Shown here in pieces: positions 19,597 through 63,825 of a stretch of DNA of 64,000 nt. The stretch lies in sequence record MN850585.1; one strand, given 5' to 3'. Under the pieces are notes generated by a model. That model saw only the letters and a program-made list of their open reading frames with translations, was not told where the DNA came from and did no database searches. The position numbers and the translations under genes are program-made. Source of the stretch: Escherichia phage skuden. Position 1 is the stretch's first letter. Every line of letters begins with the position of its first letter.

Positions 19597-20703
19597 TCAT
19601 TCGCTTTTAGCGTCAGCGCGAACATCTACCAGCAACTGAGGACGAGTACAGTATGGCAGCATGTAAGAGTGAGCTTCGAAGTCAATACCTTCGTCACGGT
19701 CTTTTTCGTATTCGAATACGTACAGTTCCTGACCAAGTGTATTTGCGTAACCCATCTTAGGACATGGACCATATGCAACTTCGAAGATGTTGTTAGCTTC
19801 ACCCAGCATAGCTACGTTAGGGAAAGCATGACCAACACCAACAGTGTCTGCTACGCTGTCAATGCTAACCAGAGTGTGAACCTTACCACGCTTGTCTTTG
19901 AACTTACCGTTGTACTGGACAAACTTAACACCACCGTAGTAGAAAGTATTCATATGAGCCTGAACGCCGTCAGCACCACCAGTTCTCAGAGAACCAGTAA
20001 TCTGTTGCCAAGCCAGTGGAGTTTGCTGTGCAAGATAAGCGTCACGAATCTTAGGATGCTTAACCAGTTTGCTGAAGAATACACGGTCAACAACTACGTG
20101 AATCTCTTCACCGTTGATTACAGTGCCAGTCTTAGCTTCATCTTCCATGTGCATACGCAGTTCTTCAATAGAAGCGTCGATATCAGCATTAGGATTGTCA
20201 AGGTCGAAGTAAATAGTCTTCTTCTCAACGTCGAACTGCTTGTACAGGTCAGCGTACAGAGTACCACGAGCATCAACAACTTTACCCTTCAGAGCTTGCA
20301 TAAACAGGAACTCACGAGTAATATCGAACTTGGTACGAATCTTCATCAGCTTCTTAGCACGTACTACAGCTTCAGTAGTCAGTTCGTTTGCAGTGCCTGG
20401 CTGACGTACACCCTGAATTTCATCAGGAGTGATGCTTTCAACTTCTTTGAAGTACATCATTGGGAAGCTGATTTGACGAACACGCTCAGGTGCGCTAGTC
20501 TCTGCTTTACGGCTATCACGGTCTACCGCATCAAGCAAGCTAACATCCCAATCAGTCAAGTCCATAAGGAAAGTAGTTTGGGTGATTGGTGCTGAACGGA
20601 ACAGACCTAAGTTGGAAATATACCCATAAGTATTTGGGATAGACTGGACTTCACCAGTCAGGTCAGCAAGGAAAAATCTGCTTTTTTCAGAATTAGTCAA
20701 CAT
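19597..20703 (-). CDS. major capsid protein
   Basis: 368 aa; strongly biased codon usage; follows decoration and protease genes in lambda-like head order. Confidence 0.65.
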   Translation of the reverse strand: MLTNSEKSRFFLADLTGEVQSIPNTYGYISNLGLFRSAPITQTTFLMDLTDWDVSLLDAVDRDSRKAETSAPERVRQISFPMMYFKEVESITPDEIQGVRQPGTANELTTEAVVRAKKLMKIRTKFDITREFLFMQALKGKVVDARGTLYADLYKQFDVEKKTIYFDLDNPNADIDASIEELRMHMEDEAKTGTVINGEEIHVVVDRVFFSKLVKHPKIRDAYLAQQTPLAWQQITGSLRTGGADGVQAHMNTFYYGGVKFVQYNGKFKDKRGKVHTLVSIDSVADTVGVGHAFPNVAMLGEANNIFEVAYGPCPKMGYANTLGQELYVFEYEKDRDEGIDFEAHSYMLPYCTRPQLLVDVRADAKSE

Positions 20704-20736: not shown

Positions 20737-21114
20737 TTACAGGCCAGTTGGTACGAAATCAATACCTTTAGCAGCCAGAGCTTTCTTGACTTCAGTAGCA
20801 TCAACGCTTGATTCAAGAGTTAGCAGGTCTTTCAGTTCTGCATCACGGTGGATACCTACTACTTTCAACTGACCATGATAAGACAGTTGCAGGTCTGCGT
20901 AGAAATTAACGATACATACAGAGTCTGCTTGGGCTTCTTCTCCAGCTTGTACCTTAGTACCATCTGCTTTCAGAACTTCACCTACACGATACTCTGTAGA
21001 TGCCTGTGGAGTGTACTCTTTACGAGAGTGGCCTGTTGGGGTAATCTGTTCCCAAAGAATGATATCATTCAGAGGTTCTCTGTTACCTAACTTAGTAAAA
21101 CCTTGATATGCCAT
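20737..21114 (-). CDS. head decoration protein (putative)
   Basis: 125-aa ORF between protease/scaffold and capsid genes. Confidence 0.5.
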   Translation of the reverse strand: MAYQGFTKLGNREPLNDIILWEQITPTGHSRKEYTPQASTEYRVGEVLKADGTKVQAGEEAQADSVCIVNFYADLQLSYHGQLKVVGIHRDAELKDLLTLESSVDATEVKKALAAKGIDFVPTGL

Positions 21115-21125
21115 TATTTTGTTCC

Positions 21126-22472
21126 TTATTTGATAAGAGATTTTAGAGCATTCTGGAGAGCCAGTTTGCGTTGTTCAGCGGTGTCTTCGGAAGCATTCTT
21201 AGCTGGTTCTTTTTCTTCTTCAACCAAATCAGCTTCGCCGTCATTACCCATTTCTTCCATAGCATTAGAATGTTCAAGAACAGCACCAGCAGTTTCTTTC
21301 AGCTTGGTAATTTCTGATTCTTTTTCTTCCATTGCAGAAGCATGGGACGCGATAGTTTCATTAAGTTTCTGGTTAGCACCTTCCATAGCATTCATAAACA
21401 GAACACTCAGAGGGTTGTCAAGACCAGCACCTAAAATAGTCGTTGCAGCTTCTTTTGCATCAAATCCAAAAGCTTCAGCAGAAGCAGAAATCTTATTAGT
21501 CAAATCTGACAAAGCAGCTTCCTGTTCTTTAGCTTTCATTTGAGCAACCTGAAGACGCAAAGCTTCTAGTTCTTGCTTTTCTTGTTCAGTCATTTCTTCA
21601 CCTGAATTGTTAACGTTTAAACTTACAGGAGCCTCTTCAGAACCTTGTAAGTAATTTAAGAAATCATCTTGAGACATGATTGAGTTAATTAAACCAAGTT
21701 CAAGAGCTTCCTGAGCAGAATAAACATTCGCCTCAGTATTCTTTACAGCTTCTTCAGAGAGTTTACGAGATTCAGCTACAAAACCTGTAAAGGTTGCGTA
21801 GGTATCATTAATTCTCTTTTGAAGTCTTTCTTTGCTTTCTTCTGAGAGTGCTTGGAATGGTGAACCCATACCTTTAAACTCACCAGCTTTGATGACGTTA
21901 ATTGTTACGCCATTCTTTTCAAATGCTTTAGTTAATTCCTGATGAACCATAATTACACCAATAGAACCAACATCTGCATCTGGTGATGCAATAATTTCTT
22001 CAGCAGAAGATGCAAGAGCGTATGCAGCGGAACAAGCGAACTCATCTACATAAGCAATAATTTTCTTTTGGCCTCTTGAAGCCATAATGTGACGTGCTAA
22101 TTCAAAGCAACCTGAAGCTTCACCACCACCAGAATCGATATGCAGAACAATAGTCTTGATTGACTCATCTGCTAAAGCTTCGTCAAAGCCTCTGCGCAAA
22201 CCTTCATAAGAGCTTAATCCACCTGTACACATTGCATCAATGAATGTCATACGATGGGTTAAACCACCCATAATAGGGATAATAGCAATGTCATCTTTTA
22301 CTTTTAAAAGACTTCTTGCTTCACCTTTGGGTTTATCAAAGTTTACTGCTGCTTGGACATCACCCAGCAATCTGTTATTCACATAAGTTGCTGCTGAGTG
22401 AGCTAATGATTCAGTGGCTAGTAAAGGTTGGTTGAATAATCTATCAGCAAGTCTGAAGATATTCGAACTCAT
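21126..22472 (-). CDS. prohead protease (S49/SppA family) with C-terminal scaffold-like region
   Basis: 448 aa; S49-like core (IVLHIDSGGGEASG...SAAYALAS...GSIGV), then Glu/Ala/Lys-rich coiled-coil tail. Confidence 0.7.
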   Translation of the reverse strand: MSSNIFRLADRLFNQPLLATESLAHSAATYVNNRLLGDVQAAVNFDKPKGEARSLLKVKDDIAIIPIMGGLTHRMTFIDAMCTGGLSSYEGLRRGFDEALADESIKTIVLHIDSGGGEASGCFELARHIMASRGQKKIIAYVDEFACSAAYALASSAEEIIASPDADVGSIGVIMVHQELTKAFEKNGVTINVIKAGEFKGMGSPFQALSEESKERLQKRINDTYATFTGFVAESRKLSEEAVKNTEANVYSAQEALELGLINSIMSQDDFLNYLQGSEEAPVSLNVNNSGEEMTEQEKQELEALRLQVAQMKAKEQEAALSDLTNKISASAEAFGFDAKEAATTILGAGLDNPLSVLFMNAMEGANQKLNETIASHASAMEEKESEITKLKETAGAVLEHSNAMEEMGNDGEADLVEEEKEPAKNASEDTAEQRKLALQNALKSLIK

Positions 22473-22816: not shown

Positions 22817-23316
22817 TAATTAAACCTTACTTTTTGTTTAAGGACTGTTGAATGGTTACCAGATTCATCTACCACATTTACAATCATATCATATACTTTG
22901 CCTTTGACAAGTACTTTGTAATCATTTTGTGAAAAAATGTATTCAAGTCTGTTTGTTTCTTTATTAACTGTCATTGGAGATTGAAATGCAGTGTCGAGGG
23001 TAATGAAAGCGGCTTCAATGCTATTAACATTGATACGTTTATTCTCGCAGTTATATAACTTTACACCCAAAAGGCATGAACTGTCAAATGGAATTTTAAC
23101 AATTTCACTACAATTTCCTGAAATAAACGGTTTTCCACTCATTGGTGCATCAAGTAACCTGCAAATAGTGAAAACGTCAGAGGTTCCACCATCACTTACA
23201 TAACCTGAAAGGCTGACCCTTGAGCCAGCCTCTACAGATAATTTGTCAGTGATAATAAGAACACCTCTATACGAATGCACTCGTGTAGCATTTGAAATAG
23301 AGATAACTTCAGCCAT
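22816..23316 (-). CDS. hypothetical head-module protein
   Basis: 166-aa ORF. Confidence 0.4.
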   Translation of the reverse strand: MAEVISISNATRVHSYRGVLIITDKLSVEAGSRVSLSGYVSDGGTSDVFTICRLLDAPMSGKPFISGNCSEIVKIPFDSSCLLGVKLYNCENKRINVNSIEAAFITLDTAFQSPMTVNKETNRLEYIFSQNDYKVLVKGKVYDMIVNVVDESGNHSTVLKQKVRFN

Positions 23317-24791
23317 TATTTATTTGCCTTATTTGCTGTGCTTGGGTCTTTCGCTGAAGGTGTCTTTGCAGTACCTTCTCCAGCGGTCTTATAACCATCT
23401 CCTGAACGGCTTTGACTATTTGGAGAAAGCTTTTCAGATACTGGCTGAGACTCATCAGCAGGAGGAAGACCAATATGCTCTCTAAGCTTGTTAGATAGCT
23501 CTTTGTCAACTTCCAAAGCACCTACTGCAACAGTCTTCTGGATATAAGAACCAATTGCTTCAAGGTCTGGAGTTTCGATATCATCATATGTGATTTGTAC
23601 ATGTTCTTCATCATCCCACATATTAAGAGCATAAGTCTGTGCAACTAAATCACGGTTAATTACGTTCTTAATTTGCTTCAGCAGAATATCCACTGACATT
23701 GCTAGTAAGCTTGTCTTAGAATCTGCAAGAGAGAATGAACCATATTTTGACTGACCCATAGCAAGAACATCTGACATAAATGCCATCATAATCTGCTTGG
23801 AATATCTGTCAATAATAGAACCTGTATCGTATGCTTTAGCACCCTGTCTAGAAACTAATGAGAACTCAAAAATATCCTCTTTAGTATCTGGGTCGATATA
23901 TCTAGGCCAGATTAAACCTGCTCTATCATTAGCAATCATATCGTTAACAACAGTTTTGCAGTATTGTACGAAAGCTTTCTTTTCAGGTTCTGCATTTTCA
24001 TCCAGATAATCTGGTGGTAAACCAATCTTTGGCATACCTACCAAGTCTCTTGAAACGCCAACAGCTTCGTACTCTTCAATCTGAACTTTATACTTCCACG
24101 GTACATAGGCATTAAGTAATGGTGAACGACCTTCTGGGTTTCCATACTCATCGTCATACTTAAACAGCATGAATTTAGCTCGTGGGAGTTTTCTTGTTAG
24201 TGGTCTTTCTCCGAGATTAATTGCTCCAGCAATATGTGAAACATTTCTCAGATTCTGTCTAACACCAGTAACTTTTCTAAAGTCTTCGTCAAAATACCAC
24301 TTATCAAGTGTTGATTGGTTTCTGATTGGTAATTTAGCCCATCCAATTAGACCATCATCAAATTTAGACTGGTACTTTCCTTTTTTACCCTGTCGCTTCT
24401 TATAAACTTTCTCATTAACACAGAACCCATAAGTGCAGAATGACATTACAGAATTAATAAAATCTGCCCAATCATGCTCCATGTCATCCATTAAAGAATT
24501 AAAGAAGTCTGCTCTTTCAAGCATTTTAGGGTCTTGCTCTTTTCCCTTTGGAGGTACGAATCTCCAGTTGACTTTTCTGACAAACATCTTAATAATATTT
24601 ACAGATGCTGCTACAGCAGGGTCACGCATCATTAATTGGAAAGTTTTAATACTTTCAGGGAACCTTAGTGCCTGACGAGGTTCTTCATAGATTCTTCCAT
24701 TCTTAACCTTCAGACCCAAAGAACCTACTTCACCCATTCTAAATGGTGGTAAGCTTTCTTGTGTTTCTGTAATATCTGCCATTCTTCTCAC
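23316..24791 (-). CDS. portal protein
   Basis: 491 aa, directly downstream of large terminase. Confidence 0.6.
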   Translation of the reverse strand: MRRMADITETQESLPPFRMGEVGSLGLKVKNGRIYEEPRQALRFPESIKTFQLMMRDPAVAASVNIIKMFVRKVNWRFVPPKGKEQDPKMLERADFFNSLMDDMEHDWADFINSVMSFCTYGFCVNEKVYKKRQGKKGKYQSKFDDGLIGWAKLPIRNQSTLDKWYFDEDFRKVTGVRQNLRNVSHIAGAINLGERPLTRKLPRAKFMLFKYDDEYGNPEGRSPLLNAYVPWKYKVQIEEYEAVGVSRDLVGMPKIGLPPDYLDENAEPEKKAFVQYCKTVVNDMIANDRAGLIWPRYIDPDTKEDIFEFSLVSRQGAKAYDTGSIIDRYSKQIMMAFMSDVLAMGQSKYGSFSLADSKTSLLAMSVDILLKQIKNVINRDLVAQTYALNMWDDEEHVQITYDDIETPDLEAIGSYIQKTVAVGALEVDKELSNKLREHIGLPPADESQPVSEKLSPNSQSRSGDGYKTAGEGTAKTPSAKDPSTANKANK

Positions 24792-24798
24792 CTAGCTA

Positions 24799-26415
24799 TC
24801 AACGTCTAAGCCCCTCATATGGGTTTCCTCTCACTAAGTCTGTGTGAGCACCCATTGATGGTGGCTTGAATAATTTAACTTCGTTAAGACTGTTGAAAGC
24901 ATCACTGGTAGCATCCACTTGGTCATCTTTAGTTTTGCCATCACCACAAAAGCCTTCAAGCTCTTGGAAATAAGCTTCGTTCCAACTACCTCTCAAAACT
25001 TTTACAAGTCCAGCTTCAGAAGCAGCAGAAAATCCCGCAAAGCGGGTAACTTTATCTTTATTTGTTGGCTTAGCTCTTGCACGATAGCCTTTCTCGGCAA
25101 GTTTCCTGATGAGGGATGTTGCGTAGGATTTACCAGCAGCGCCTGGGTCTTGAGGGATAAAAATACCAGTTCGCTTACCGTCACTTTCAGCAGTCAAATT
25201 AATTTGTGTTTCGACTCCAGAGGGTCTATCTCTAAATCTTACTACATCAATGATATAATAGCAACCGTCTTTTTTAGATTTACCCATCTTAACACCTGCT
25301 GTCCAGTCTGGATTAGGGTTAACCTCAGATGGTAAAGTTGCTGCTAAGTCCCATGCTCTAACATCAAATACATCCTCTGGGAGTGAATCAACAATTTCAC
25401 ACCATTGTCTTTGCCAATAGTTTGAACCTTCTGCACGAGCCTTCCAGTTACCAAAACGAAGTCTTGCAACGTTTACAGGGGTGTTGTTTTCCAACTTACC
25501 ACGGTACTTAGGTTCTAAGAAGTCAAGGATTGGGTTATCATCAATCGTACCAGAGATGAAGGTGTATGTTTGAGGAATCTCAAGAGGGAACATTTCAAGA
25601 ATCTTGTCTCTCTCCCAATCAGAAACCATCACACCATCATTCATTACATACCAACGAATACGACCACACTTTTCAGGGTCTGGATAACCTTCTTCATCTA
25701 AGAATGGTTCTACCCAATCATAAATAAAGTGGTCTCTGTCTGGGTTCATGGAAATCTTCATGTATGAATCACCTTCAGCACCAGAACGAAGACGTGTTTG
25801 TAGGTATGAAATCTGTGAAGCAGAGAAGTGTGTACCTTCGTCAAAGTAAATAGCTGAGTATTCAATACCCTGATGACCTTCAGCGTGCTTTTCAAGTTCT
25901 AGATAGGTAAACTTGATAGTCGCCCCAGAAGGGAATGTGATAGTCATTTTCTGCTCGTGAGGAATCCCACCAAACTTACCAAATAGTTTCTTTGCAGCAG
26001 GCCATAAACCACCTTGTAGCTGTGTTGTGTTTCGACGGAAATACACAGCGTTATAGTTAGGGTCTTCAATAAATCTTAAAGAGTCCATTAATAATGCAGC
26101 AGTCTTACCAGCACCAGCAGCACCACCATAGAGAACCAAGTCAGCATTAGTATTTAAAAAGACCTCTTGAGAACCCGGCTGAGGGGCTACATAGTTCTTA
26201 TCAGTCATCAATTTGAAGATAAGTCTAACTTGGTCTGGTGTGTATCTTAATAAAGTCAGAATTTGAGTTGGAAGGAATTTAGAGGGGTCTTTACCGAATG
26301 ATTTGATAATTTCTTTTACTTCATCAGAAAGCCCCAACTCTCCAGCTAGGACTTTCCTAACATCTTCCACTCGCTTCTGCTTAACAGCATTTAAGTCCAT
26401 TAAGCACCTCCGCAA
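24799..26415 (-). CDS. terL: terminase large subunit
   Basis: 538 aa; Walker A LYGGAAGAGKT; C-terminal nuclease-like acidic motifs. Confidence 0.85.
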   Translation of the reverse strand: MRRCLMDLNAVKQKRVEDVRKVLAGELGLSDEVKEIIKSFGKDPSKFLPTQILTLLRYTPDQVRLIFKLMTDKNYVAPQPGSQEVFLNTNADLVLYGGAAGAGKTAALLMDSLRFIEDPNYNAVYFRRNTTQLQGGLWPAAKKLFGKFGGIPHEQKMTITFPSGATIKFTYLELEKHAEGHQGIEYSAIYFDEGTHFSASQISYLQTRLRSGAEGDSYMKISMNPDRDHFIYDWVEPFLDEEGYPDPEKCGRIRWYVMNDGVMVSDWERDKILEMFPLEIPQTYTFISGTIDDNPILDFLEPKYRGKLENNTPVNVARLRFGNWKARAEGSNYWQRQWCEIVDSLPEDVFDVRAWDLAATLPSEVNPNPDWTAGVKMGKSKKDGCYYIIDVVRFRDRPSGVETQINLTAESDGKRTGIFIPQDPGAAGKSYATSLIRKLAEKGYRARAKPTNKDKVTRFAGFSAASEAGLVKVLRGSWNEAYFQELEGFCGDGKTKDDQVDATSDAFNSLNEVKLFKPPSMGAHTDLVRGNPYEGLRR

Positions 26416-26844: not shown

Positions 26845-26920
26845 TGGAGAATCCGAAGGGACTCGAACCCTTATAAACCTGTTTTGCAGACAGGCACATA
26901 GCCATTTCTGTCACGGATTC
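26845..26920 (-). tRNA. tRNA-Cys (anticodon GCA)
   Basis: hand-folded cloverleaf; T-loop TTCGAGT; 7-bp acceptor; loop CTGCAAA; CCA encoded. Confidence 0.65.
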
Positions 26921-26924
26921 AAAT

Positions 26925-27017
26925 TGGAGGAAGATACCAGACTTGAACTGGTACACCGATTTCTCAGCTACTGGCAGTTTAGCAAACTGCTCCCTTACCT
27001 TTTAGGGTTAATCTTCC
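26925..27017 (-). tRNA. tRNA-Ser (anticodon GCT), class II
   Basis: 93 nt; acceptor GGAAGAT/ATCTTCC; T-loop TTCAAGT; anticodon loop TTGCTAA; long variable arm. Confidence 0.6.
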
Positions 27018-27018
27018 A

Positions 27019-27756
27019 TTATTTCTGTAATGCGCTCTTCATTTCTGGTGTTGCAATAGTGTCGATTACACCAGTTTTACAAGCATCATCAAACCAGTCT
27101 GGTAAGATACCTGCTAAGAACCCATTGATATTCGTTTTAAGGTACTCTGCAATAAGGGCAGCTTCTTCTTCAATCATCTGCACAACTTCATCTGCATAAG
27201 CTGTAATCTTTGAGATACCTTCATTAATCTTACTAACAGCCTGATTAGCTAAATCAGAAACAGTATCAAGACCCTTATCAATAGCGTCTTGTAAGTCACT
27301 TAACACACTGTTAACACTGTCTAGTGTGCTGTTAATCATGTCAATAGCTTTTTGACCATACTCTGTAGCAACACCCATAATACCACTGAATGGTGTACAA
27401 CCAACTTGTTCTCCTGCTGCACCCATAACATTGGAATATCCCTTTGCTACCTGCATACGTGATGAAAACTCATCAATAGACTTTTGACCATAGTCTGTTA
27501 GGGTCTTAGTGGTTGCTGTAGTGCTTGTCAGGCTTGTTGTAAAGCTGTTTAGAAGGACTGTTGTAAGTCCAGCAGCAACAAGCTTCTCCTTCATTGTAGG
27601 GTCTGTTACAGAGCTAATAGAGCTTACAAGTGATGTAGAGGCAGCTACGGTTCCACCGAGAACTGCTGCACCAGTAATAAGTGGGTTAGAAAACCCTTTA
27701 CCGGTTTTTAAGAGATTAAAAATCTCCTTACCTTGTTCTGTCATCTCTTTCATTAA
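27019..27756 (-). CDS. hypothetical protein (Ser/Thr-rich) inside tRNA cluster
   Basis: track ORF 27019..27969 has an N-terminal extension overlapping tRNAs; likely start at MKEMTEQ (27756). Confidence 0.4.
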   Translation of the reverse strand, partial: LMKEMTEQGKEIFNLLKTGKGFSNPLITGAAVLGGTVAASTSLVSSISSVTDPTMKEKLVAAGLTTVLLNSFTTSLTSTTATTKTLTDYGQKSIDEFSSRMQVAKGYSNVMGAAGEQVGCTPFSGIMGVATEYGQKAIDMINSTLDSVNSVLSDLQDAIDKGLDTVSDLANQAVSKINEGISKITAYADEVVQMIEEEAALIAEYLKTNINGFLAGILPDWFDDACKTGVIDTIATPEMKSALQK

Positions 27757-27769
27757 GCACCTTTGAAAT

Positions 27770-27845
27770 TGGTAGTCCAGTGGGATTTGAACCCTCTTCT
27801 CATGTTTTTCAGACACGCGCTTTACCATATAAGCTACTTGGACTA
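27770..27845 (-). tRNA. tRNA-Phe (anticodon GAA)
   Basis: perfect 7-bp acceptor TAGTCCA/TGGACTA; T-loop TTCAAAT; anticodon loop CTGAAAA. Confidence 0.6.
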
Positions 27846-27850
27846 TAAAT

Positions 27851-27926
27851 TGGGGTGACCTACGGGATTTGAACCCGTATAGACCATGTTCACAGCATGG
27901 GTCATTACCATTTATGATAAGGCCAC
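27851..27926 (-). tRNA. tRNA-His (anticodon GTG)
   Basis: T-arm ACGGG-TTCAAAT-CCCGT; anticodon stem CCATG/CATGG with loop CTGTGAA. Confidence 0.65.
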
Positions 27927-27957
27927 ATTTAAGGACTCTCGTAAGAACCCTTAGAAG

Positions 27958-52967: not shown

Positions 52968-53663
52968 TCAATGTTTTACTAACATAGTTTTAATGTGCGG
53001 AAGGATTCTGTTTACCTTCTGAACATTCTTCTCTGTATCTTCTATAAAACATACTATATCAAAGTAAGGAAGAATGCAAGACTGAATCATCCTAACTTTC
53101 AAACTTTCTGCATTTATAGAGTTAGTTCCAAAACCGCGCATAAAAAGCATGTAATCGTGCTCTATGTTATGCCTTAAGAACATCTCAGTAGGTATTCTCT
53201 GAGATTCACCTCTCGCTGTCAAGAGTCCAATGGCAGCGTGATTAGCAATTGCATCAATAATATTGAAAACATACGTTGGTTTTGCTCTTACAGAGTCAAG
53301 AAGATTAGTGTACTGAGAGAATGACCCATCAGTCAATTCCGTTGAGCAATCTTCGTGATTAAAATTTGTAAGAACACCATCAATATCTGCTAAGATGAGG
53401 TTACCTTTTTCTACAAGGTCTTTATTGACTATGACTAAACTGTCACGTCTCACACCTATAGATTGTCCAGTCTCTTTGTCCACAACGTTCACAATTGGTT
53501 CTGATGTGTGGAACTCTTCAAGTGAACATACAACTTCTCTTGCAGTGTCTTCAAAATCCCTGCACTGTTCTGGAGTCCATATACAGGAATCAAGACCTAA
53601 CTCATGAGGATGCAAGTCGTAAGCATGACACAGTACTTCATCAGACTTTCTTAATTTTTTCAT
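52968..53663 (-). CDS. HAD-superfamily phosphatase-like protein
   Basis: 231 aa; motif LILADIDGVLTNF (DxDG); precise activity unknown. Confidence 0.45.
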   Translation of the reverse strand: MKKLRKSDEVLCHAYDLHPHELGLDSCIWTPEQCRDFEDTAREVVCSLEEFHTSEPIVNVVDKETGQSIGVRRDSLVIVNKDLVEKGNLILADIDGVLTNFNHEDCSTELTDGSFSQYTNLLDSVRAKPTYVFNIIDAIANHAAIGLLTARGESQRIPTEMFLRHNIEHDYMLFMRGFGTNSINAESLKVRMIQSCILPYFDIVCFIEDTEKNVQKVNRILPHIKTMLVKH

Positions 53664-54189
53664 GATTTACCTTAGAAATGTTTGTTGCAAATTCACATTT
53701 AGCGATGACTTTCATATTGTTATAGACATCTTGAGAGTATTTCTTAGCTTTAGGAATTTTGTACGAATACCCAGCATTATATGATGCTAAAACTTTTTGT
53801 AAAGTTTTCTTTGACTTTGGTTGACCGTGCACCTTAGTCCAAAATTCAAGCTCTTTGTGTGTTTCCTTTGCAGCATAGTCAAAATCTTTTAAGAGTTTCT
53901 TTTTAGCCACATTAGGACTGATTTTGTTACGCTTTACAACAGTCTTCAAGTGATTCTGGAAGATACCATAGTCATGTGTCTTTTTATTCTCTACATTCAG
54001 ACCTAACTCTGACTCTTGTAAGGCTATAGCAGCTAGAGTGATACCCCAACCTTTACCCATATTATTCTCACCATACTGGTAAGCTTTTAACATGTTTACT
54101 TTTTGGCTAATTGATAGCTCTGGGCAGTCAACTGCATAAGATAAGTGTGCTGTAAACATTAAGCACAAACCTAGAATCAATTTCTTCAT
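53641..54189 (-). CDS. secreted lytic transglycosylase-like protein (SLT fold)
   Basis: 182 aa; signal peptide MKKLILGLCLMFTAHLSYA; motifs QESELG...GIFQ and YNAG. Confidence 0.5.
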   Translation of the reverse strand: MKKLILGLCLMFTAHLSYAVDCPELSISQKVNMLKAYQYGENNMGKGWGITLAAIALQESELGLNVENKKTHDYGIFQNHLKTVVKRNKISPNVAKKKLLKDFDYAAKETHKELEFWTKVHGQPKSKKTLQKVLASYNAGYSYKIPKAKKYSQDVYNNMKVIAKCEFATNISKVNHEKIKKV

Positions 54190-54250: not shown

Positions 54251-54273
54251 AAAAAAGGCCGCCGAAGCAGCCT
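54251..54273 (-). terminator. rho-independent terminator after rIIB
   Basis: minus-strand RNA AGGCUGC-UUCG-GCGGCCU followed by UUUUUU. Confidence 0.6.
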
Positions 54274-54289
54274 TTTAAGAAATTACTTA

Positions 54290-55402
54290 TTAGATTTCAC
54301 GTTTACGTTGGGAGATTAGTTCACCAGCAGTGCCAACGATGACATGCAAAGCTTCAGTCTTGCCATCCCATTCTTTCAGCACTTTACGTTGGCTATCAAC
54401 GATTGCTGCAACTTCATAACGAGACGAACGCATCTTCATATCGTTGTAATCAGTTGGAACAGATACAACATCTCGTGGATGGACACGAACCTTCAGGATT
54501 GTATCACCTGAGAAGCAACGAACATAATCCCAAGCACCAACATGAAGACCTTGAGAGCAAGTTACGTTACGGTTATTATCAACCATCCAACGTGGCATCT
54601 CTACAATGTTACCCAAATCATTAGGTACTCTGTAGGTATGGGAGTCAACCAGCTTGCCTTCACGAGTAGAGACTTTCTTCCAACCAATGATGTAGCCTTC
54701 TTCATCGATTTCAACATCAAGGTGAGATACGAAGCCCCAAAGTTGTTCTACGGAATCTTTAGATGGGTTTTCCATCAGTTTTTCGAAGAACATTACAAGG
54801 CGTTCAAAACCCTTATCTCCAGTCTTCATCATGTGAAGAATACGGTCAACCAGAGTAGAACGCATCTCAACAGCACCGTAGAATAACTTATCACCTTTGA
54901 TGGTGATAGCGCCCTGAGTGAAGTTTTCGATAGACTTACGAATGTTCATCAATTCAAAGGCTTTTTTGAACTCACCTTTCACAACATGAACTACAATCTC
55001 TTGATAGTTCGGATGAGTAGACTCAACAATTTCAGATTCTGAACCGTAAGTCATAATTACAGAGTCACCAGTAATCATGTACTCAATCTTGTCATCTTTC
55101 TGCATAGCTTCATGCAGTTTATTTACTGGAGCTTTCTGTACAGCGTCTTTAACGACCTTTTCAACTGGTTTGCCAGCTTTCTTTTTAAAAGTCTTAGCAA
55201 CTTGCTTCAAAGTCTTCGTAGCTGGTGTAGAAGTCGCCTTCTTCTTCTTCCCTTTTAAGGTTGCTTCATGACGCTCTACAGCACGACCAACTGAACGGGT
55301 TGAGGTGTTAAATTTCTGTGCAATAGCTGTTTTAGTCAGCTTACCCTCTTTAACCAGTTTGTAAATTTCTGCGTCAATCTGTGCTTTGGTTTTAGTAGTC
55401 AT
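54290..55402 (-). CDS. rIIB: rIIB protein
   Basis: 370 aa; C-terminal two-thirds align to T4 rIIB as recalled (LFYG..E.RS.LVDRIL, ENPSKD, HPRDVVS(V/I)P.DYND.KMR); N-terminal HTH. Confidence 0.85.
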   Translation of the reverse strand: MTTKTKAQIDAEIYKLVKEGKLTKTAIAQKFNTSTRSVGRAVERHEATLKGKKKKATSTPATKTLKQVAKTFKKKAGKPVEKVVKDAVQKAPVNKLHEAMQKDDKIEYMITGDSVIMTYGSESEIVESTHPNYQEIVVHVVKGEFKKAFELMNIRKSIENFTQGAITIKGDKLFYGAVEMRSTLVDRILHMMKTGDKGFERLVMFFEKLMENPSKDSVEQLWGFVSHLDVEIDEEGYIIGWKKVSTREGKLVDSHTYRVPNDLGNIVEMPRWMVDNNRNVTCSQGLHVGAWDYVRCFSGDTILKVRVHPRDVVSVPTDYNDMKMRSSRYEVAAIVDSQRKVLKEWDGKTEALHVIVGTAGELISQRKREI

Positions 55403-55481
55403 CTTATTACTCTCTCTTGTTAGTTAATAAATCATTTTGTGAGGCTATTCTAAGGGGCTTCAAAACCCCTTGTCAAACACT

Positions 55482-57848
55482 TTAATCGTAAATTGTAGTT
55501 CCTTCTGGAACACACTTCACATCAAAACCTAAGAACTTACTCACTTCGATGGGTGACACTTTATTCCAATCTAAATGAGAAAGCAAGAAGTTTTCTTGTT
55601 TTCTTTTTGAAAGATAGTTTGTCAGTTTGATAACCATGCGGTCACCCGCTTTCTTAATCTTTTTGTACAGTTTTGTATCATTGTCAAGGCATGACTTCAA
55701 ATCCTGAAGAACACTGATAGTGTAAGTGTATGCAAACGGTGCAGCCACATACTGAATCTTACCAAAAATTGCCTCAACAGCATTCTCATTGCCTTCTAAG
55801 AAGATGGTTTTGTTTGTATCTCGTGAATAGCAATACCCGCGAGAAATCTTCTTGTTATTAAACGTAAAGTTTCTGGCAATAATCCAACTACTTGTAAGGT
55901 CAAGGACACCATTCATATAGATACGTGTCATATACCTATTATGATTAATCCAGTGAACATCAGTTAAGCTGTCATTCAATAGTTTCTCATCTACTTCAAT
56001 CCAGTCTTCTGGTATCTTTTTCCAATTTGCTTTTCGGAAAACATAGACTGTTTTTCCTATAACATTAGCAATTGTTTTAGCTACATCTTCTGGGGATGAG
56101 CAAAAACATTCACCATCAACTGTGTCACCTACTGCCTTGATATAAAGTTGGGGTTCTTCAATTGTATCTAGGTCTTCTGACACCTCTGTGTATGAAGCTT
56201 TAGTTTCTGATGGAACAGCTTTCCAGAGTTTTACAACACCCCTCACAGCTTCTTTACGCTGATAGTGGTGTTCCTTATCAGACATCTTCACAATCTTTAA
56301 CAAGCTTTTATCAAGTTTATGCAGATTGATTAGGTCGTCTAACTCTTTCTCAGTAGAGAATACAAAGACGATACCATTGTATCTGTGAAACAGACTTGAC
56401 TCACTGGCATAGTCTCGACATGCACCACGCAAGATTTGATTGCGTCCTACAGTCTTCTCAGTACCGTTTTTATTGCGACGGTCATTGATAACAAACAAAA
56501 ACTGTTCAATTTGGCTTTTACGCATTGCGCCAAAGATATTGAACATACTTGCCTCTTGAGTGTAGGAAAGCGATGTTGCACGAATCTTACTCTCTAAAGA
56601 GTTGAACTTAACATAAGCAACTGGATTATAAAGATAATCTACTTTAGGGATGTTGTTTCCGTTCCTATCAACCTTAATATTACCTTTACCGTCACGTTCA
56701 TAGATGACTGAGCCATCTTCTGCGTAGATAATTCCACGACGAATGTTTAGTAATTCTTCTTCCAGAGAATCAAGCTTAACACCACCCCACTCCAGCTTTG
56801 GACACACAGCATTAAACATCTCTCGTGAGTTCAAGCGTAACTCAGCATAAGCCTGTGCAGCATCCATGAGTGTAGGTTGACTATTAACTTTCTTGATAAC
56901 ATCCTTTGTAATTGCTTCAGTTATCTTTTTAGTAGCCTCAATGATAACATTTTTTGTTGTATCATTCATCTGCAATGCTTCACGAGAAGCTGCAATAGCA
57001 ACTGAACCAATAGGCATGTAGATGTTTACAAGGTCTACGCTCCTACGGAAAAATTCTGGTAAGACTTTGAAGAAATCATCACCAAGTAATGCTTCCATGT
57101 TAACAGGGTAGGCAATGTTACCCATCACCACATTAAACTCTGTCCTGTTACCACTAGAACGCCAGCTTTGCTTATGAATCATGGCATCATAAACACCCTC
57201 TTCACGGGCAATGACGTTCATATCTGCTAATACATCGTCGTACACAATATTACTTTCTGGTTTTACAGCAAAGTATGAGTATACATTACCAGCTTCTTCA
57301 AAGAACTTTGAGATACGGTGGTCAGCAACTGCTACACGTACAGCTAAACCATTAGGTTCTTTTGTTGGGTTGGTGGTCAGCTTAGTTACTTGAGGGATAC
57401 CATTCTCAAGATAAACAGAGTACTTATTAACAACACCGTCAACATAGCTAGACACTGTGAATGACTGAGCAATTGCAAATGGTGATTTTGAGCCGATACC
57501 CATTGCACCAATGTAGTCATTAGAGTCATTCTTCGTAGAAGCTCCATAGTTTAGGTACAAACTCATAACTTTATCATGAGTCAATCCAGTTCCAAAATCA
57601 CGAACTTCAAAGTAAGGCTCAAAACGAGTAGGTAAATGCACATGGAACGGGATGTTTTCTTTTCCAGCTTCTTTCTGAGCATCTACTGCGTTACATGATA
57701 GTTCACGAATTACTGCTCGCTCTTTAAATGTATATACACCAGAACTCAGAAGGCTGAACATTTCAGGTGTCATTGTAATCTGTGCTTGAGATGTCTCCAA
57801 AGAAGTTGAACTCTTAATCACTTCTGCGTGGTCGTTTACCATGCGCAT
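55482..57848 (-). CDS. rIIA: rIIA protein (GHKL/HSP90-like ATPase domain)
   Basis: 788 aa; RAVIRELSCNAVDA, RDFGTGL, IGAMGIGSKSPF match GHKL boxes and T4 rIIA N-terminus as recalled. Confidence 0.85.
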   Translation of the reverse strand: MRMVNDHAEVIKSSTSLETSQAQITMTPEMFSLLSSGVYTFKERAVIRELSCNAVDAQKEAGKENIPFHVHLPTRFEPYFEVRDFGTGLTHDKVMSLYLNYGASTKNDSNDYIGAMGIGSKSPFAIAQSFTVSSYVDGVVNKYSVYLENGIPQVTKLTTNPTKEPNGLAVRVAVADHRISKFFEEAGNVYSYFAVKPESNIVYDDVLADMNVIAREEGVYDAMIHKQSWRSSGNRTEFNVVMGNIAYPVNMEALLGDDFFKVLPEFFRRSVDLVNIYMPIGSVAIAASREALQMNDTTKNVIIEATKKITEAITKDVIKKVNSQPTLMDAAQAYAELRLNSREMFNAVCPKLEWGGVKLDSLEEELLNIRRGIIYAEDGSVIYERDGKGNIKVDRNGNNIPKVDYLYNPVAYVKFNSLESKIRATSLSYTQEASMFNIFGAMRKSQIEQFLFVINDRRNKNGTEKTVGRNQILRGACRDYASESSLFHRYNGIVFVFSTEKELDDLINLHKLDKSLLKIVKMSDKEHHYQRKEAVRGVVKLWKAVPSETKASYTEVSEDLDTIEEPQLYIKAVGDTVDGECFCSSPEDVAKTIANVIGKTVYVFRKANWKKIPEDWIEVDEKLLNDSLTDVHWINHNRYMTRIYMNGVLDLTSSWIIARNFTFNNKKISRGYCYSRDTNKTIFLEGNENAVEAIFGKIQYVAAPFAYTYTISVLQDLKSCLDNDTKLYKKIKKAGDRMVIKLTNYLSKRKQENFLLSHLDWNKVSPIEVSKFLGFDVKCVPEGTTIYD

Positions 57849-57876: not shown

Positions 57877-58053
57877 TTACTTATTAAACATTTTACCAGA
57901 ACCACCACAAATAGGGCAACAGCCTGCTCTTGTATACCCTTCTCCGTTGCAGTAATCACACTTCTTGCACTCTACATAGTACTTGCAAAGAAGGTAAACA
58001 AATACTGCTACACTACCAAGTGACAGTAAAATTTCTATCCAATATGCTTGCAT
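57877..58053 (-). CDS. small membrane protein with C-terminal Cys cluster, 58 aa (below track cutoff)
   Basis: hand-translated MQAYWIEILLSLGSVAVFVYLLCKYYVECKKCDYCNGEGYTRAGCCPICGGSGKMFNK. Confidence 0.35.
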   Translation of the reverse strand: MQAYWIEILLSLGSVAVFVYLLCKYYVECKKCDYCNGEGYTRAGCCPICGGSGKMFNK

Positions 58054-58370
58054 GACTCACCTCTCATATTTTTGTAAAGGATAAAGCTTCTGTCATGAAC
58101 GATACTTGTAGATACTGCAAAGTTACTTTCAAGCATCTGTTTGTTTGGATTGTAGAAGCTTTCTTTAAACTCGTCAAGAGCAAACTGGTGATGTTGTGGA
58201 AGACCTTTTACACAAACCTTTATTGTGATTGCTGCTGCAACCTTCCCAGTCAGTTCTTCTTTAGCTGCTACTAAAATTTTGTTAAGGAACTTTTTACCAT
58301 CTTCAGGCTTCTTGATGTTCTCCCAACGTTCTTCTAAGACAATGTTGATGTTCATCTCTTTGATTTTCAT
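58035..58370 (-). CDS. hypothetical protein
   Basis: 111-aa ORF. Confidence 0.45.
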   Translation of the reverse strand: MKIKEMNINIVLEERWENIKKPEDGKKFLNKILVAAKEELTGKVAAAITIKVCVKGLPQHHQFALDEFKESFYNPNKQMLESNFAVSTSIVHDRSFILYKNMRGESCKHIG

Positions 58371-58387: not shown

Positions 58388-58408
58388 AAAAAGGCTCCCG
58401 TAGGAGCC
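58388..58408 (-). terminator. rho-independent terminator after nadV
   Basis: minus-strand RNA GGCTCC-TACG-GGAGCC then TTTTT. Confidence 0.6.
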
Positions 58409-58423
58409 TCTTATCATATACTT

Positions 58424-60205
58424 TTAAAGCTGCTTGTCAATATTATTTCGAATATCACCAAGAGATGTGTAACCGAACTGCTCAGAGTCACTAAAGACTA
58501 AACGTAAAGCACAAGCTGGATGTTCAAGCACATCTGCAAAGCTCTGGAATCCATAGCCATCTACAGCTTTCAGCTTATCACCATCCCACATAGGTGCTAC
58601 ACCACCAAAAGCAGACTTCTTAACACCACTATCTGTTTTAGGGTCTTTTGCAAGCATAATCTCTTTACCACCAATACTTGCAAGAGTTGCTTTGACAGCA
58701 AATGCAAAGGTGTCACGAGTCATGTACTGGTAAGTGTAAGAACCTACACCAAACACTACGTTAGAGCTTGCAAAACCCATTTCATACAAACGCTTCAAGA
58801 TTTCGTTTGCACGTTCCAACGTGATAGAGTCACCATAAATAAGCCCGATGTGCTCATCCAGTACTTTAAAACCTTTAGAGTTGATAGTTCCTCCAAAGAT
58901 GTTATACAGTGTCTTGATAGCTCCATCAATCTCAGCTACAGGACGTGTTACAACGTTTGCAGAACCAACCATATAAGCATTTTTCAACATCACTGTATCA
59001 GCAACTTCAAAGTCTTCTCTGTCAACAACCATTTCGTAGCCTTCTGATAGTAGCCATCCAGCAATACCATAGCTGATGTTTTCAAGCTTCATGTTCAGAA
59101 CAGCATCCAACATTGTGTCACTAGCTTCCAGCTTGCTTAGGTGCTCGTAATAAGCCTTTTTAGCACACTCTAAGTGGATTGCTTTATAACCTGTGACAAT
59201 GTGTACAGGGTCTCCAGAGTCAGGACGAATTACCAGTTTTCCATCACGTTCCATAATTTCTTTACGAAGTGCTGGTAAAATTTCTGACACAGTTCTCCAG
59301 AAGTTATAAGTGTCTGAAACAACACTTGCAATACCTGTTGGGTAAGTTTCTGTTAAGAAACGACGGAAGGTTTGTAACTCACCTTTAAAGCGTCTTTCTT
59401 CTTCAATCAACTCATTACCACCTTCCCAAGCAATGTTTGCACACATTACAGAGTGCTCAGTGGCTGGTACAGAGCTACCAATATCAGAGATTGGGTAGGA
59501 CTGTCCATAGATTCGTTTAGCCGTATACACAGCAGGGAAGCTATCAGTTCCTTTAAAGCTGGTTAAGTGGCCTACAGCGTTAAATGCGTCATCAGTAAAG
59601 CCGGACATACCACGCATAGCAAAGTCATGGCACTGATAAGGCAAATGCAAGTCGTTGTCACAAGTAAGGTCAGCCCACTTCTTACAGATACGTTTGTAGT
59701 GCAATGCAATAGTTGCAATGGTACAAGCCTTCCAAATCTCAGCAGAGAAAGCATCTTCCAGATAGCCTGCTACCCAATGGAAACCTGAAACAGTGTTCTG
59801 GAAAACAATCATCGGAACACGCATAGGGACAACTGTGCCCTCTTCTACAGCGTATACTTCAACTGGTAGATAACCTAAGTCGTGAAGTGCTTCCCAATGC
59901 TCTCGACCGATAGCATCTTTGCCCAGAACACCATTCATGACTTCTAAGATTTCGTCAATTGCTTCTTTTTTGTCACGTTCAAAGAACGTAGCATTCCAGT
60001 GGTCTATCAAGTAATCTTTAACAAAACGTTGAATACCAAAAGCGACTACACCATCAATTGCTAATGGACTGTTAAACCATTTGTCGCTACGTGGTGTCAG
60101 GTTCAACATAAGATATTGCGTAGCATCTGGATACTGATATATATGTGATGCCTTGTAAGCATCTGCATTAAGACCTGCTGGTACTGCGTAAAGTGACTTA
60201 CTCAT
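58424..60205 (-). CDS. nadV: nicotinamide phosphoribosyltransferase (NadV/Nampt)
   Basis: 593 aa; NADAYKASHIYQYP, HDFAMRGMSG...SFKGTDS, VPATEHS, VVSDTYN, IRPDSGDP align to Nampt motifs as recalled. Confidence 0.85.
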   Translation of the reverse strand: MSKSLYAVPAGLNADAYKASHIYQYPDATQYLMLNLTPRSDKWFNSPLAIDGVVAFGIQRFVKDYLIDHWNATFFERDKKEAIDEILEVMNGVLGKDAIGREHWEALHDLGYLPVEVYAVEEGTVVPMRVPMIVFQNTVSGFHWVAGYLEDAFSAEIWKACTIATIALHYKRICKKWADLTCDNDLHLPYQCHDFAMRGMSGFTDDAFNAVGHLTSFKGTDSFPAVYTAKRIYGQSYPISDIGSSVPATEHSVMCANIAWEGGNELIEEERRFKGELQTFRRFLTETYPTGIASVVSDTYNFWRTVSEILPALRKEIMERDGKLVIRPDSGDPVHIVTGYKAIHLECAKKAYYEHLSKLEASDTMLDAVLNMKLENISYGIAGWLLSEGYEMVVDREDFEVADTVMLKNAYMVGSANVVTRPVAEIDGAIKTLYNIFGGTINSKGFKVLDEHIGLIYGDSITLERANEILKRLYEMGFASSNVVFGVGSYTYQYMTRDTFAFAVKATLASIGGKEIMLAKDPKTDSGVKKSAFGGVAPMWDGDKLKAVDGYGFQSFADVLEHPACALRLVFSDSEQFGYTSLGDIRNNIDKQL

Positions 60206-60221: not shown

Positions 60222-60713
60222 TTAGTTATGTCTTGCAAACTCACCATGAAGTTCTATTCGCTTTTTAATTACAGCTTCTTTTGCTTCTTCTACCGTTTTA
60301 AATCTTCCACAAAAGTATTCTTTATGGTAAAGCATGACTCTTGCTTTGTAAAGACCTGTTTGTTTACAAAAACTTACACCCTTCACACCAGTTTTATTAT
60401 TCTTGTATATACCCCTATTCCTCTGATTTTGTGACTTTGTGCTAAGTCTTAAATTCTCCAACTTATTATTAGATTTATCAAGGTCTATGTGGTCTATCTC
60501 ATATCCACTTGGTATCTCACCTCCAGACATAATCCATGCAATATTATGTGCATAGTACCTCTTCTTATTTATCTGGACTTGGATATAACCCTTCTTAGAC
60601 CTTGTGCCAGCAACATTACCAGCAATAGCGGTATTGCAAAGGGTTACTTTCCAAATTAGTAAACCTGTCTCCGGTTCGTATATTAGGTATTTTTCGAAGT
60701 AACCCTTATCCAT
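60222..60713 (-). CDS. HNH homing endonuclease with AP2-type DNA-binding domain
   Basis: 163 aa; HNH core YYAHNIAW...EIDHIDLDKSNNKLENLRL; C-terminal GVKGVSF...YKARV...FKTVEEA AP2-like; free-standing between nadV and prs. Confidence 0.7.
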   Translation of the reverse strand: MDKGYFEKYLIYEPETGLLIWKVTLCNTAIAGNVAGTRSKKGYIQVQINKKRYYAHNIAWIMSGGEIPSGYEIDHIDLDKSNNKLENLRLSTKSQNQRNRGIYKNNKTGVKGVSFCKQTGLYKARVMLYHKEYFCGRFKTVEEAKEAVIKKRIELHGEFARHN

Positions 60714-60721
60714 TTTAATAC

Positions 60722-61618
60722 CTAATCCAAATTTGCTACAGTAACTTGACTATAATGTGTTAAGCCACGGTCTTTAGCTTCGCCTAAAGAATTTGTAGTG
60801 TAAATATGGTCGATACCGTTGTCAAGAAGGTTTTCAACACCTTTAGAGAAGATACCATGTGTTACATAAAGCTCAACACGTTTTGCACCTGCTTCACGTA
60901 GGTGTTTAGCTGCCTCTACGAAGGTTCGACCACCATCACAGATATCATCAAGAATCATGACAGTTTTATCTGTCAAATCCACATCATCAAGGATTCGCAT
61001 ACCAGTAATTTCACCAGTCTGAAGGTTACGTACTTTAGACATTGTGATGTATGGTTTATCCACCTCTTTAGCAGTCTCTGCAATCTTCTTAGAAGCACCT
61101 GCATCTGGGGCTACTAAGTAATCAACCAGTGGGTCATTTGCATAATGGACTGCAATCTCCTTTTGAGGAATACTCTGGAAGCAATTGAAAAGGTTATCTG
61201 GAACGTAACTATGAGGGTCAACTGCACAGACTGCATCAAAACCCATTGCATTAACCTGTTGTGCAAACACTTTCAAAGCTGCTGCATCACCTTTAAACAT
61301 GTGACGGTCGTAACGTGCATTTGGCAAATAGTAAAAGATAGCAGTCCTCATAGCAAACTTATGAGGTACTAAATCATCAATTGCCTCTTTAGCGAGTGCC
61401 ACAGCAAATAATGTGTCTTTGTCATAACCCTTTACAATCATAATCACGTTGTTGATGGATGATGCAGCATAAGCAGTAAAATCAACAAACTCTGGTGAAA
61501 AATGTCCACCAATCTCACCAGAGGGAAATTGGACGATGTTAAACTCTTCTTCATGAGTCCCTTTAGTTGGTGAATGAACTGTAACACGGATAGATGTTTT
61601 CATAGTTTTCTCTCTCAA
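60722..61618 (-). CDS. prs: ribose-phosphate pyrophosphokinase (PRPP synthetase family)
   Basis: 298 aa; MILDDICDGGRTFVEAAKHLREAGAKRVELYVTHGIFS matches the PRPP-binding loop; LVAPDAG flexible loop. Confidence 0.8.
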   Translation of the reverse strand: MREKTMKTSIRVTVHSPTKGTHEEEFNIVQFPSGEIGGHFSPEFVDFTAYAASSINNVIMIVKGYDKDTLFAVALAKEAIDDLVPHKFAMRTAIFYYLPNARYDRHMFKGDAAALKVFAQQVNAMGFDAVCAVDPHSYVPDNLFNCFQSIPQKEIAVHYANDPLVDYLVAPDAGASKKIAETAKEVDKPYITMSKVRNLQTGEITGMRILDDVDLTDKTVMILDDICDGGRTFVEAAKHLREAGAKRVELYVTHGIFSKGVENLLDNGIDHIYTTNSLGEAKDRGLTHYSQVTVANLD

Positions 61619-63339: not shown

Positions 63340-63825
63340 TCACTCTGCTCGCCATTGACAATCACCTTGCCACCCATACTCTTTTCTCCAGAGGTTTTGG
63401 TTATCAGAACCACGATATGGTTTAACTGTTGGTTTAGATGAATCATACTTACCATCAATCACCACGTCAACATATTTCATCACATCTAGGTGGATTTTTT
63501 CGTGTAACTGAAAACCTGTCCAGAGCCAGATAGATTTTTCTGGGTAAACAGTTTTAATACGTTTACATATGTTGGTGACCTCTTGAATGTTTCTATCATC
63601 AAGAGGCTCTCCACCAAGTATTGACAACCCACTAATGGCCTTATCATCCATTAACTTAATGATGCCGTAGAGGTTTGCATAAGTAAACTCTTTACCAGCA
63701 TTAAACTTCCAAGACTCCCTGTTAAAGCAGCCTTCACAGTGATGTTTACAACCAGCTACGAAGAGGCTTACACGAACCCCTTCACCATTAGCTGTGTCAA
63801 ATGGTCGAATCTCCATGTAATTCAT
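63340..63825 (-). CDS. nrdG: anaerobic ribonucleotide reductase activating protein (radical SAM)
   Basis: 161 aa; Cys cluster CKHHCEGCFN, ILGGEPL, WLWTGF match NrdG as recalled. Confidence 0.85.
   Translation of the reverse strand: MNYMEIRPFDTANGEGVRVSLFVAGCKHHCEGCFNRESWKFNAGKEFTYANLYGIIKLMDDKAISGLSILGGEPLDDRNIQEVTNICKRIKTVYPEKSIWLWTGFQLHEKIHLDVMKYVDVVIDGKYDSSKPTVKPYRGSDNQNLWRKEYGWQGDCQWRAE

Follow-up and report, generated by a model that had tools for sequence, protein, structure and literature searches.

The rII Locus of Phage Skuden

The subject of this report is the rIIA-rIIB locus of Escherichia phage skuden, studied within a stretch of 64,000 nucleotides (sequence record MN850585.1) that is referred to throughout as the window. 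The interval 54290-57848 of the window is exactly occupied by two co-oriented open reading frames (ORFs) on the minus strand, separated by a spacer of 79 nucleotides. A preliminary description of this DNA had recognized a T4-type rIIA/rIIB pair here by likeness to the T4 proteins, and the identification was confirmed down to the exact coordinates, with the BLASTP matches of both proteins falling inside the rII families. The two genes are as follows:

55482-57848, minus strand: rIIA, 788 amino acids (aa), ~89 kDa (ORF, phrog_612, BLASTP to T4)
54290-55402, minus strand: rIIB, 370 aa, isoelectric point 9.4 (ORF, phrog_609, BLASTP to T4)

In the PHROGs database, RIIA matches phrog_612 (E=2.4e-189) over aa 1-770 of 788, and RIIB matches the RIIB family phrog_609 (E=5.6e-89), a profile of 1055 positions that is matched by RIIA as well. 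Direct BLASTP against the T4 proteins, which were taken from NC_000866, aligned RIIA aa 24-317 with T4 RIIA at 32% identity (E=7e-37) and RIIB aa 11-340 with T4 RIIB at 37% identity (E=5e-62); the remaining 470 aa of RIIA, at its C-terminal end, gave no BLASTP alignment to T4 RIIA and are recognizable at the profile level only. With similarity far beyond chance, the assignment of 55482-57848 to RIIA and of 54290-55402 to RIIB, both of T4 type, is thus confirmed at the sequence level. Searches of a local copy of Pfam returned no model above threshold for RIIA or RIIB and no match to an RIIB model, and sequence searches of the PDB with the two proteins found nothing significant; the precomputed annotation PF26926 is present on all close RIIB homologues. 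The rIIA start codon is an ATG preceded by AAGAGGAAA, a good Shine-Dalgarno sequence.

Two relatives within the Ounavirinae served for closer comparison: UAB_Phi87, a Felixounavirus, and SUSP1, a Suspvirus and thus a member of a second genus. The amino acid sequences of RIIA and RIIB are 63 and 81% identical, respectively, to those of SUSP1. Relative to UAB_Phi87, rIIA shows 103 synonymous and 20 non-synonymous codon differences and rIIB shows 33 and 5, and both genes are under purifying selection. The gene order common to UAB_Phi87 and SUSP1 runs from nrdG through several small genes, “prsA,” “NAMPT,” and small ORFs to rIIA and rIIB, and continues with a phrog_600 protein, a PseT-like “polynucleotide kinase,” and then spanins.

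The 3.6-kb rII region matched 277 phage records, and for 210 of these a single match spans 80% or more of the query. The best matches were Felixounavirus genomes from E. coli and Salmonella, with 95-96% nucleotide identity, and these records annotate rIIA and rIIB in the same place; identity of 95-96% to many Felixounavirus members was also seen over a stretch of 3.2 kb. By nucleotide identity the window is a Felixounavirus (Ounavirinae), that is, the genome of a lytic, Felix O1-like myovirus, as had been proposed for the phage group in the preliminary description. The rIIA/rIIB locus is an already known accessory module, ordinary for Felix O1-like phages, since it is annotated in these relatives and the genome map of Felix O1, published in 2010, begins at the rIIA homologue (PMC3185647). 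Across 50,697 phage records, rIIA/rIIB occur in about 2,900. The practical value of the locus is one of annotation, in that it ties the window to Felixounavirus.

The Predicted ATP-Binding Domain of RIIA and its Resemblance to Hsp90

The structural analysis of RIIA drew on an AlphaFold2 model (mean predicted local distance difference test score, pLDDT, of 85) and on a family alignment of 51 homologues, to which the counts in this section refer. Two features of the protein are pertinent:

57249-57767, minus strand: predicted GHKL (Bergerat-fold) ATP-binding domain, ~aa 28-200 (invariant motifs and profile matches)
56979-56987, minus strand: S288-R289-E290 within “AASREALQ,” ahead of a long helix; candidate counterpart of the catalytic loop of Hsp90

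The GHKL motifs that had been pointed out in RIIA on inspection are present, and their key residues are invariant in the alignment: E49, N53, and D56 of motif I (E49-x3-N53-x2-D56), D84, G86, and G88 of motif II (D84-F-G-T-G88), and G114, G117, and G119 of motif III (G114-A-M-G-I-G119). HATPase_c matches 30 family members (best E=2.7e-5) and HATPase_c_3 matches 18 (best E=1.4e-8). R289 and E290 of the SRE segment are likewise invariant, and S288 is nearly so. No transmembrane segment was predicted in RIIA, in which hydropathy over 19 aa reaches a maximum of 1.29.

Within the GHKL superfamily, the N-terminal domain of RIIA lies nearest to Hsp90, and not to GyrB, MutL, or the histidine kinases, as judged by PDB profile searches, Foldseek, and NCBIfam. 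All of the top 50 PDB matches of the RIIA model in Foldseek are Hsp90 proteins (TRAP1, HtpG, Hsc82, Hsp90, and GRP94), with E-values from 3e-16 to 1e-11 and 570-750 aligned columns that extend beyond the N-domain; the TM-scores of these matches are modest (0.3-0.46), and identity outside the N-domain is ~12%. The RIIA family profile retrieved Hsp90-family chains only from the PDB (best E=9e-5), and the best NCBIfam match was “HSP90 family protein” (NF010683; E=3e-11), at 42.5 bits versus a cutoff of 455 bits. Alignment of the RIIA family with yeast Hsp82 by hhalign gave a probability of 94.6% (E=7e-8), placing RIIA aa 18-139 on Hsp82 aa 4-143 and pairing the RIIA segment YTFKERAVIRELSCNAVDA with YSNKEIFLRELISNASDA of Hsp82. 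The Pfam HSP90 model matched none of the 51 family members. In the literature searched, RIIA is described only as a “GHKL ATPase,” and no paper tying phage RIIA to Hsp90 was found. That RIIA is specifically Hsp90-like is therefore a mildly new proposal, which the models and profiles partly establish and which applies to the family as a whole rather than to this window in particular.

Domain Organization of RIIB

The AlphaFold2 model of RIIB (mean pLDDT 87) consists of three parts, the last of which, aa 95-370, is a well-predicted core containing the conserved region of the protein:

55241-55390, minus strand: N-terminal three-helix, helix-turn-helix (HTH)-like domain, aa 5-54 (AlphaFold2, pLDDT 84-97)
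55121-55240, minus strand: lysine-rich disordered linker, aa 55-94 (pLDDT <50 for aa 56-89)
54383-54820, minus strand: conserved beta-rich core, aa 195-340 (alignment of 55 homologues and high-confidence model)

The N-terminal helices show local likeness in Foldseek to the DNA-binding domains of DeoR, KorA, and MuB (probability 0.7-0.96, E ~1-2), and there is a weak Pfam match to HTH_Tnp_ISL3 (E=0.0014). The region that follows is strongly basic: aa 50-95 (46 residues) contain 16 lysine or arginine residues and 2 aspartate or glutamate residues, and aa 55-94 carry a net charge of +9. Roughly half of the 55 RIIB homologues lack the HTH-like domain and linker, the conserved part being the C-terminal beta-rich region, in which K242, R271, C282, G285-L286-H287, P309, and V313 are invariant. 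No transmembrane segment was predicted in RIIB. Because the whole RIIB model found no PDB match in Foldseek at E<=0.001, no fold can be assigned to the core from solved structures. Among the viral predicted structures of BFVD, its matches were RIIB proteins only. These include entry Q56C47 from phage RB43, a natural RIIA-RIIB fusion of 1049 aa; fusions of this kind underlie the phrog_609 profile. The fusion offers a Rosetta-stone hint that both proteins act as one unit.

Expression Signals and Flanking Small ORFs

Signals that may delimit and subdivide the rII transcription unit lie in the spacer and on both sides of the gene pair:

55447-55476, minus strand: promoter-like site in the rIIA-rIIB spacer, with TTGACA, an 18-nucleotide spacer containing a GGGG...CCCC hairpin, and TAGAAT (consensus scan, 11/12)
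54253-54276, minus strand: predicted intrinsic terminator, 10-bp GC-rich stem and T-run, 13 nucleotides past the rIIB stop
57877-58370, minus strand: two small ORFs upstream of rIIA, 111 aa and 58 aa (phrog_4262, phrog_3931)
58389-58412, minus strand: predicted terminator after the Namat-like gene described below, ahead of the two small ORFs (terminator scan)

We infer the promoter and terminator functions from consensus matches. The hexamers and stem of the spacer element, which occurs once within the window, are kept in both UAB_Phi87 and SUSP1 and thus in two genera. A reading of the spacer hairpin as a terminator was considered and rejected; because the hairpin has no T-run and conserved hexamers resembling -35 and -10 boxes flank it, a promoter that contains a hairpin is preferred. 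Possibly comparable promoter/stem-loop cassettes are described for T4-like phages (PMC4122927, PMC2839356). The strong terminator beyond rIIB is also kept in UAB_Phi87 and SUSP1, and the two small ORFs upstream of rIIA, which are syntenic in these phages, probably share its transcription unit. The 58-aa ORF (57877-58053, minus strand) lies directly upstream of rIIA and is conserved in SUSP1. Its product carries a hydrophobic helix at the N-terminus, and its two CxxCxGxG-like motifs (CDYCNGEG and CPICGGSG) recall DnaJ-type zinc fingers.

Probable Counter-Defense Function of rII and Alternative Explanations

Mutants of T4 rII fail on lambda lysogens owing to RexAB, and transposon data indicate that both genes are essential only in the presence of RexAB (bioRxiv 10.1101/2025.11.20.689424). 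When RIIA or RIIB is knocked down in T4, MM02, EdH4, SUSP1, and N4, plating is reduced solely on hosts that express lambda RexAB (PMC11879866). Because the skuden proteins share 63 and 81% of their residues with those of SUSP1, an anti-Rex function is, by orthology with T4 and SUSP1, the most likely role of the rII genes in the window, and the SUSP1 result bears out the connection to prophage-encoded exclusion that had been drawn at the outset. Overall, we assign a probability of roughly 0.85 to the interpretation that rIIA-rIIB of Felixounavirus is a counter-defense module, orthologous to that of T4, whose products act jointly against RexAB-type abortive infection.

In the mechanism that we propose, a transcription unit would begin ahead of the two small ORFs and end at the terminator that follows rIIB; an internal promoter may also precede rIIB. 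Its products would include RIIA, a putative GHKL ATPase of Hsp90-like character whose C-terminal part varies between lineages, and RIIB, which appears to join an HTH to a conserved beta-rich core through a disordered basic linker. The two proteins may form an ATP-dependent complex, driven by ATP binding or hydrolysis in RIIA, and this complex could block or neutralize the activation of a membrane-depolarizing effector of the RexAB type and so spare the infected cell. Joint action is suggested because the two genes are conserved as neighbors, are fused in RB43, and encode proteins that both match phrog_609.

Several observations weigh against this interpretation or parts of it. The anti-Rex role of Felixounavirus rII is argued from orthology, and the wild-type Felixounavirus Bas63 is insensitive to RexAB, a result from which nothing can be concluded unless an rII mutant is compared (PMC8594841). 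Neither RIIA nor RIIB has a predicted membrane segment, and therefore any action at the membrane would be peripheral or indirect. RIIB of phage T6 alone triggers a bacterial gasdermin/CARD defense and is toxic on expression (PMC10312443), so that the cellular effect of RIIB may be broader than that of a Rex inhibitor, and RIIB can be a liability to the phage. As to the biochemical side of the proposal, RIIA itself scores under the gathering threshold of HATPase_c in Pfam (13.2 versus 26.4 bits, E=0.13); despite this score, its placement in the GHKL superfamily is supported by the motifs and the predicted fold. RIIA is matched by no model of the middle or C-terminal domain of Hsp90, and hhalign pairs the SRE segment with “LSREMLQ” (Arg380) of Hsp82, in a fragment identical to PDB 1usv_A, at a non-significant probability of just 7%. 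A sub-profile of the SRE region did not retrieve Hsp90 from the PDB. Because of these last two results, the equivalence is kept as a lead, and the resemblance of “SREALQ” in RIIA to the middle-domain catalytic loop “LSREMLQ” of Hsp90 is suggestive, not established.

A more far-reaching proposal would make RIIA a diverged Hsp90-type machine, equipped with an ATP pocket and a catalytic arginine loop, with RIIB as its client-adaptor, the two acting as a clamp that inactivates RexB or another pore-former. We consider this unlikely, but if true, such an ATP-driven clamp or chaperone account would explain the 70-year-old rII puzzle, and would do so for all phages that carry rII. The Hsp90 resemblance and the invariant ATP-binding residues of RIIA provide a testable handle on the rII mechanism.

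T4 r mutants were originally isolated as rapid-lysis mutants, and one alternative is that rIIA and rIIB are lysis-timing genes that delay lysis on superinfection, their main role belonging to the lysis program rather than to counter-defense. PHROGs files both families under “lysis,” most GenBank records carry the name “RIIA/RIIB lysis inhibitor,” and spanin genes and a lysozyme-like phrog_600 gene are situated just downstream of rIIB. However, the name derives from a host-dependent phenotype of T4 and not from a test, a terminator stands between rIIB and the downstream genes, rII knock-down in five phages had no effect on Rex-free hosts (PMC11879866), and T4 rII insertions are neutral without RexAB (bioRxiv 10.1101/2025.11.20.689424), all of which makes a primary role in lysis timing improbable.

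It is likewise improbable that RIIB acts chiefly as a transcription factor, using its HTH to tune phage or host transcription while RIIA works as a separate ATPase. Such a role was proposed by Iyer et al. 2021 (PMC7824862) and accords with the three-helix HTH-like fold and basic linker at the RIIB N-terminus, but the similarity scores of the HTH are weak (E ~1-2), about half of RIIB homologues do without these two elements while preserving the beta-rich core, and the RIIA-RIIB fusion in some phages favors joint action. No support was found for the idea that the two ORFs have lost their function in this phage and are decaying, apart from the dispensability of rII in the laboratory in other phages (PMC11879866); intact, full-length reading frames, synonymous to non-synonymous ratios of ~5:1 to 7:1 against relatives, retention of all catalytic-type residues, and conservation in more than 200 related genomes render it vanishingly improbable. 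The evidence as a whole favors the counter-defense interpretation.

Neighboring Genes of the rII Locus

Upstream of the small ORFs and rIIA lie three genes, all on the minus strand, two of which bear on NAD+ metabolism and one of which is a probable mobile insertion:

58424-60205, minus strand: Namat-like gene (“nadV,” NAMPT family), 593 aa (PDB matches to Namat)
60222-60713, minus strand: homing endonuclease with HNH_3 and AP2 domains, 163 aa, between Namat and Adps
60722-61618, minus strand: Adps-like gene (“prsA,” phosphoribosyl pyrophosphate synthetase-like), neighbor of Namat

In the Felixounavirus Bas63, a two-gene NARP1 operon uses ADP-ribose and nicotinamide to rebuild nicotinamide adenine dinucleotide (NAD+), and it overcomes the SIR2-HerA defense. 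The first of the three gene products matches the SpbetaL1 Namat structures 9W5W/9W5X at E=1e-128 and canonical Nampt at ~1e-41, and “nadV” and “prsA” look like the NARP1 anti-defense pair Namat/Adps. The earlier call of nadV thus holds at the level of the NAMPT family, and the gene is better read as the Namat of NARP1. This reading strengthens the anti-defense theme that had been suggested for the gene block, and the position of rII next to NARP1 marks a block of counter-defense genes.

The Namat-like protein has 593 aa, compared with ~495 aa in solved Namat and Nampt proteins; because its PDB matches fall in two stretches, it appears to contain an insertion of ~90-100 aa around aa 343-430, which is also found in UAB_Phi87 and SUSP1. 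The homing endonuclease is 94% identical to the SUSP1 copy, with the flanking genes at 75-76%, and is present in some Felixounavirus genomes and missing from most. The disparity in identity and this patchy occurrence indicate a mobile insertion.

Past the rIIB terminator, within 52968-54189 (minus strand), two further products were noted. The phrog_600 protein (182 aa) is hydrophobic at its N-terminus and weakly matches SLT transglycosylase, and in the phrog_3970 “polynucleotide kinase” (231 aa) other kinase/phosphatase profiles match the C-terminal two-thirds only. Spanins come next.

The Head Module and Other Genes of the Window

The remaining genes named in the preliminary description, and the families on which their assignment rests, are as follows:

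1471-2016: frd (DHFR_1)
2018-2917: td (Thymidylat_synt)
63340-63825: nrdG (Fer4_12/radical SAM)
24799-26415, minus strand: large terminase, TerL (Terminase_6N/6C, T4-type)
23316-24791, minus strand: portal (Portal_Mu, Mu-type)
21126-22472, minus strand: S49 protease (Peptidase_S49, E=1e-38)
20737-21114, minus strand: decoration protein, 125 aa (PDB 9ncf_J, “Head stabilization/decoration protein,” E=2e-77)
19597-20703, minus strand: capsid protein of the lambda-E family (Phage_cap_E, E=1.3e-78)

The calls of frd, td, and nrdG were upheld by these family matches. A lambda-like order of the head genes had also been described, running from terminase and portal through an S49 protease and a decoration protein to the capsid, and was thought to form, together with the T4-like genes, a mosaic typical of Felix O1-like phages. 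The order itself proved correct, and the decoration call agrees with the PDB match. The lambda-like label fits the S49 and E-type capsid families and the place of the decoration gene, but it does not extend to the terminase and portal, which are of T4 and Mu type, respectively. The PHROGs label of the 125-aa protein is “tail protease” (phrog_4146), a name that appears misleading given its match to a decoration protein. Two small genes lie between the portal and the S49 protease.

The same head order is found in SUSP1, with head proteins at 88-97% amino acid identity, and in UAB_Phi87. Recent recombination or a chimeric assembly, considered as a source of the T4-like and lambda-like mix, was rejected in view of the same layout in two Ounavirinae genera. 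Since UAB_Phi87 and SUSP1 share the layout, the co-occurrence of this head module with T4-like genes for accessory functions and nucleotide metabolism is best viewed as a property of the subfamily, and the mosaic is indeed typical of the group.

Elsewhere in the window, a cluster of 25 tRNA genes occupies 26845-31675 on the minus strand. A program-called ORF at 27019-27969 overlaps the genes for tRNA-Phe, tRNA-His, and tRNA-Gln; this gene is probably shorter than called, because its DUF7217 match starts only at aa 80.

Comparison with Known Systems

The head module resembles that of lambda (B portal, C protease, Nu3, D decoration, and E capsid) in the succession of portal, S49 protease, decoration protein, and E-type capsid, and the S49 and Phage_cap_E families are common to both. 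It differs from lambda in its T4-type Terminase_6 terminase, its Mu-type portal, and the two additional small genes between portal and protease; no homology was detected between the window decoration protein and lambda gpD.

RIIA and the Hsp90 proteins (HtpG, TRAP1, Hsp82/Hsc82, and GRP94) have residues of the N-terminal ATP-binding motifs in common, including “Y..KE...RELxxNxxDA.” Unlike Hsp90, RIIA has no charged linker, no recognizable C-terminal dimerization domain, and no MEEVD tail, and it falls outside the family by every curated threshold. Its partner RIIB has no counterpart among the Hsp90 co-chaperones.

The rII genes of T4 encode homologous proteins in the same order, rIIA then rIIB, and T4 RIIA carries the same GHKL motifs. 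In comparison with T4, the window RIIA is 63 aa longer and the lysine-rich linker of RIIB is extended, and a spacer of 79 nucleotides with a promoter-like hairpin element separates the two genes in place of ~11 nucleotides in T4 (NC_000866 coordinates). On comparison, the small ORF upstream of rIIA showed no relation to T4 rIIA.1.

The closest counterparts are the rII loci of other Felixounavirus and Ounavirinae phages (Felix O1, wV8, UAB_Phi87, humlepung, and SUSP1), in which gene content, order, orientation, and neighbors are as in the window, the sole local variation being the presence or absence of the HNH homing endonuclease between Namat and Adps.

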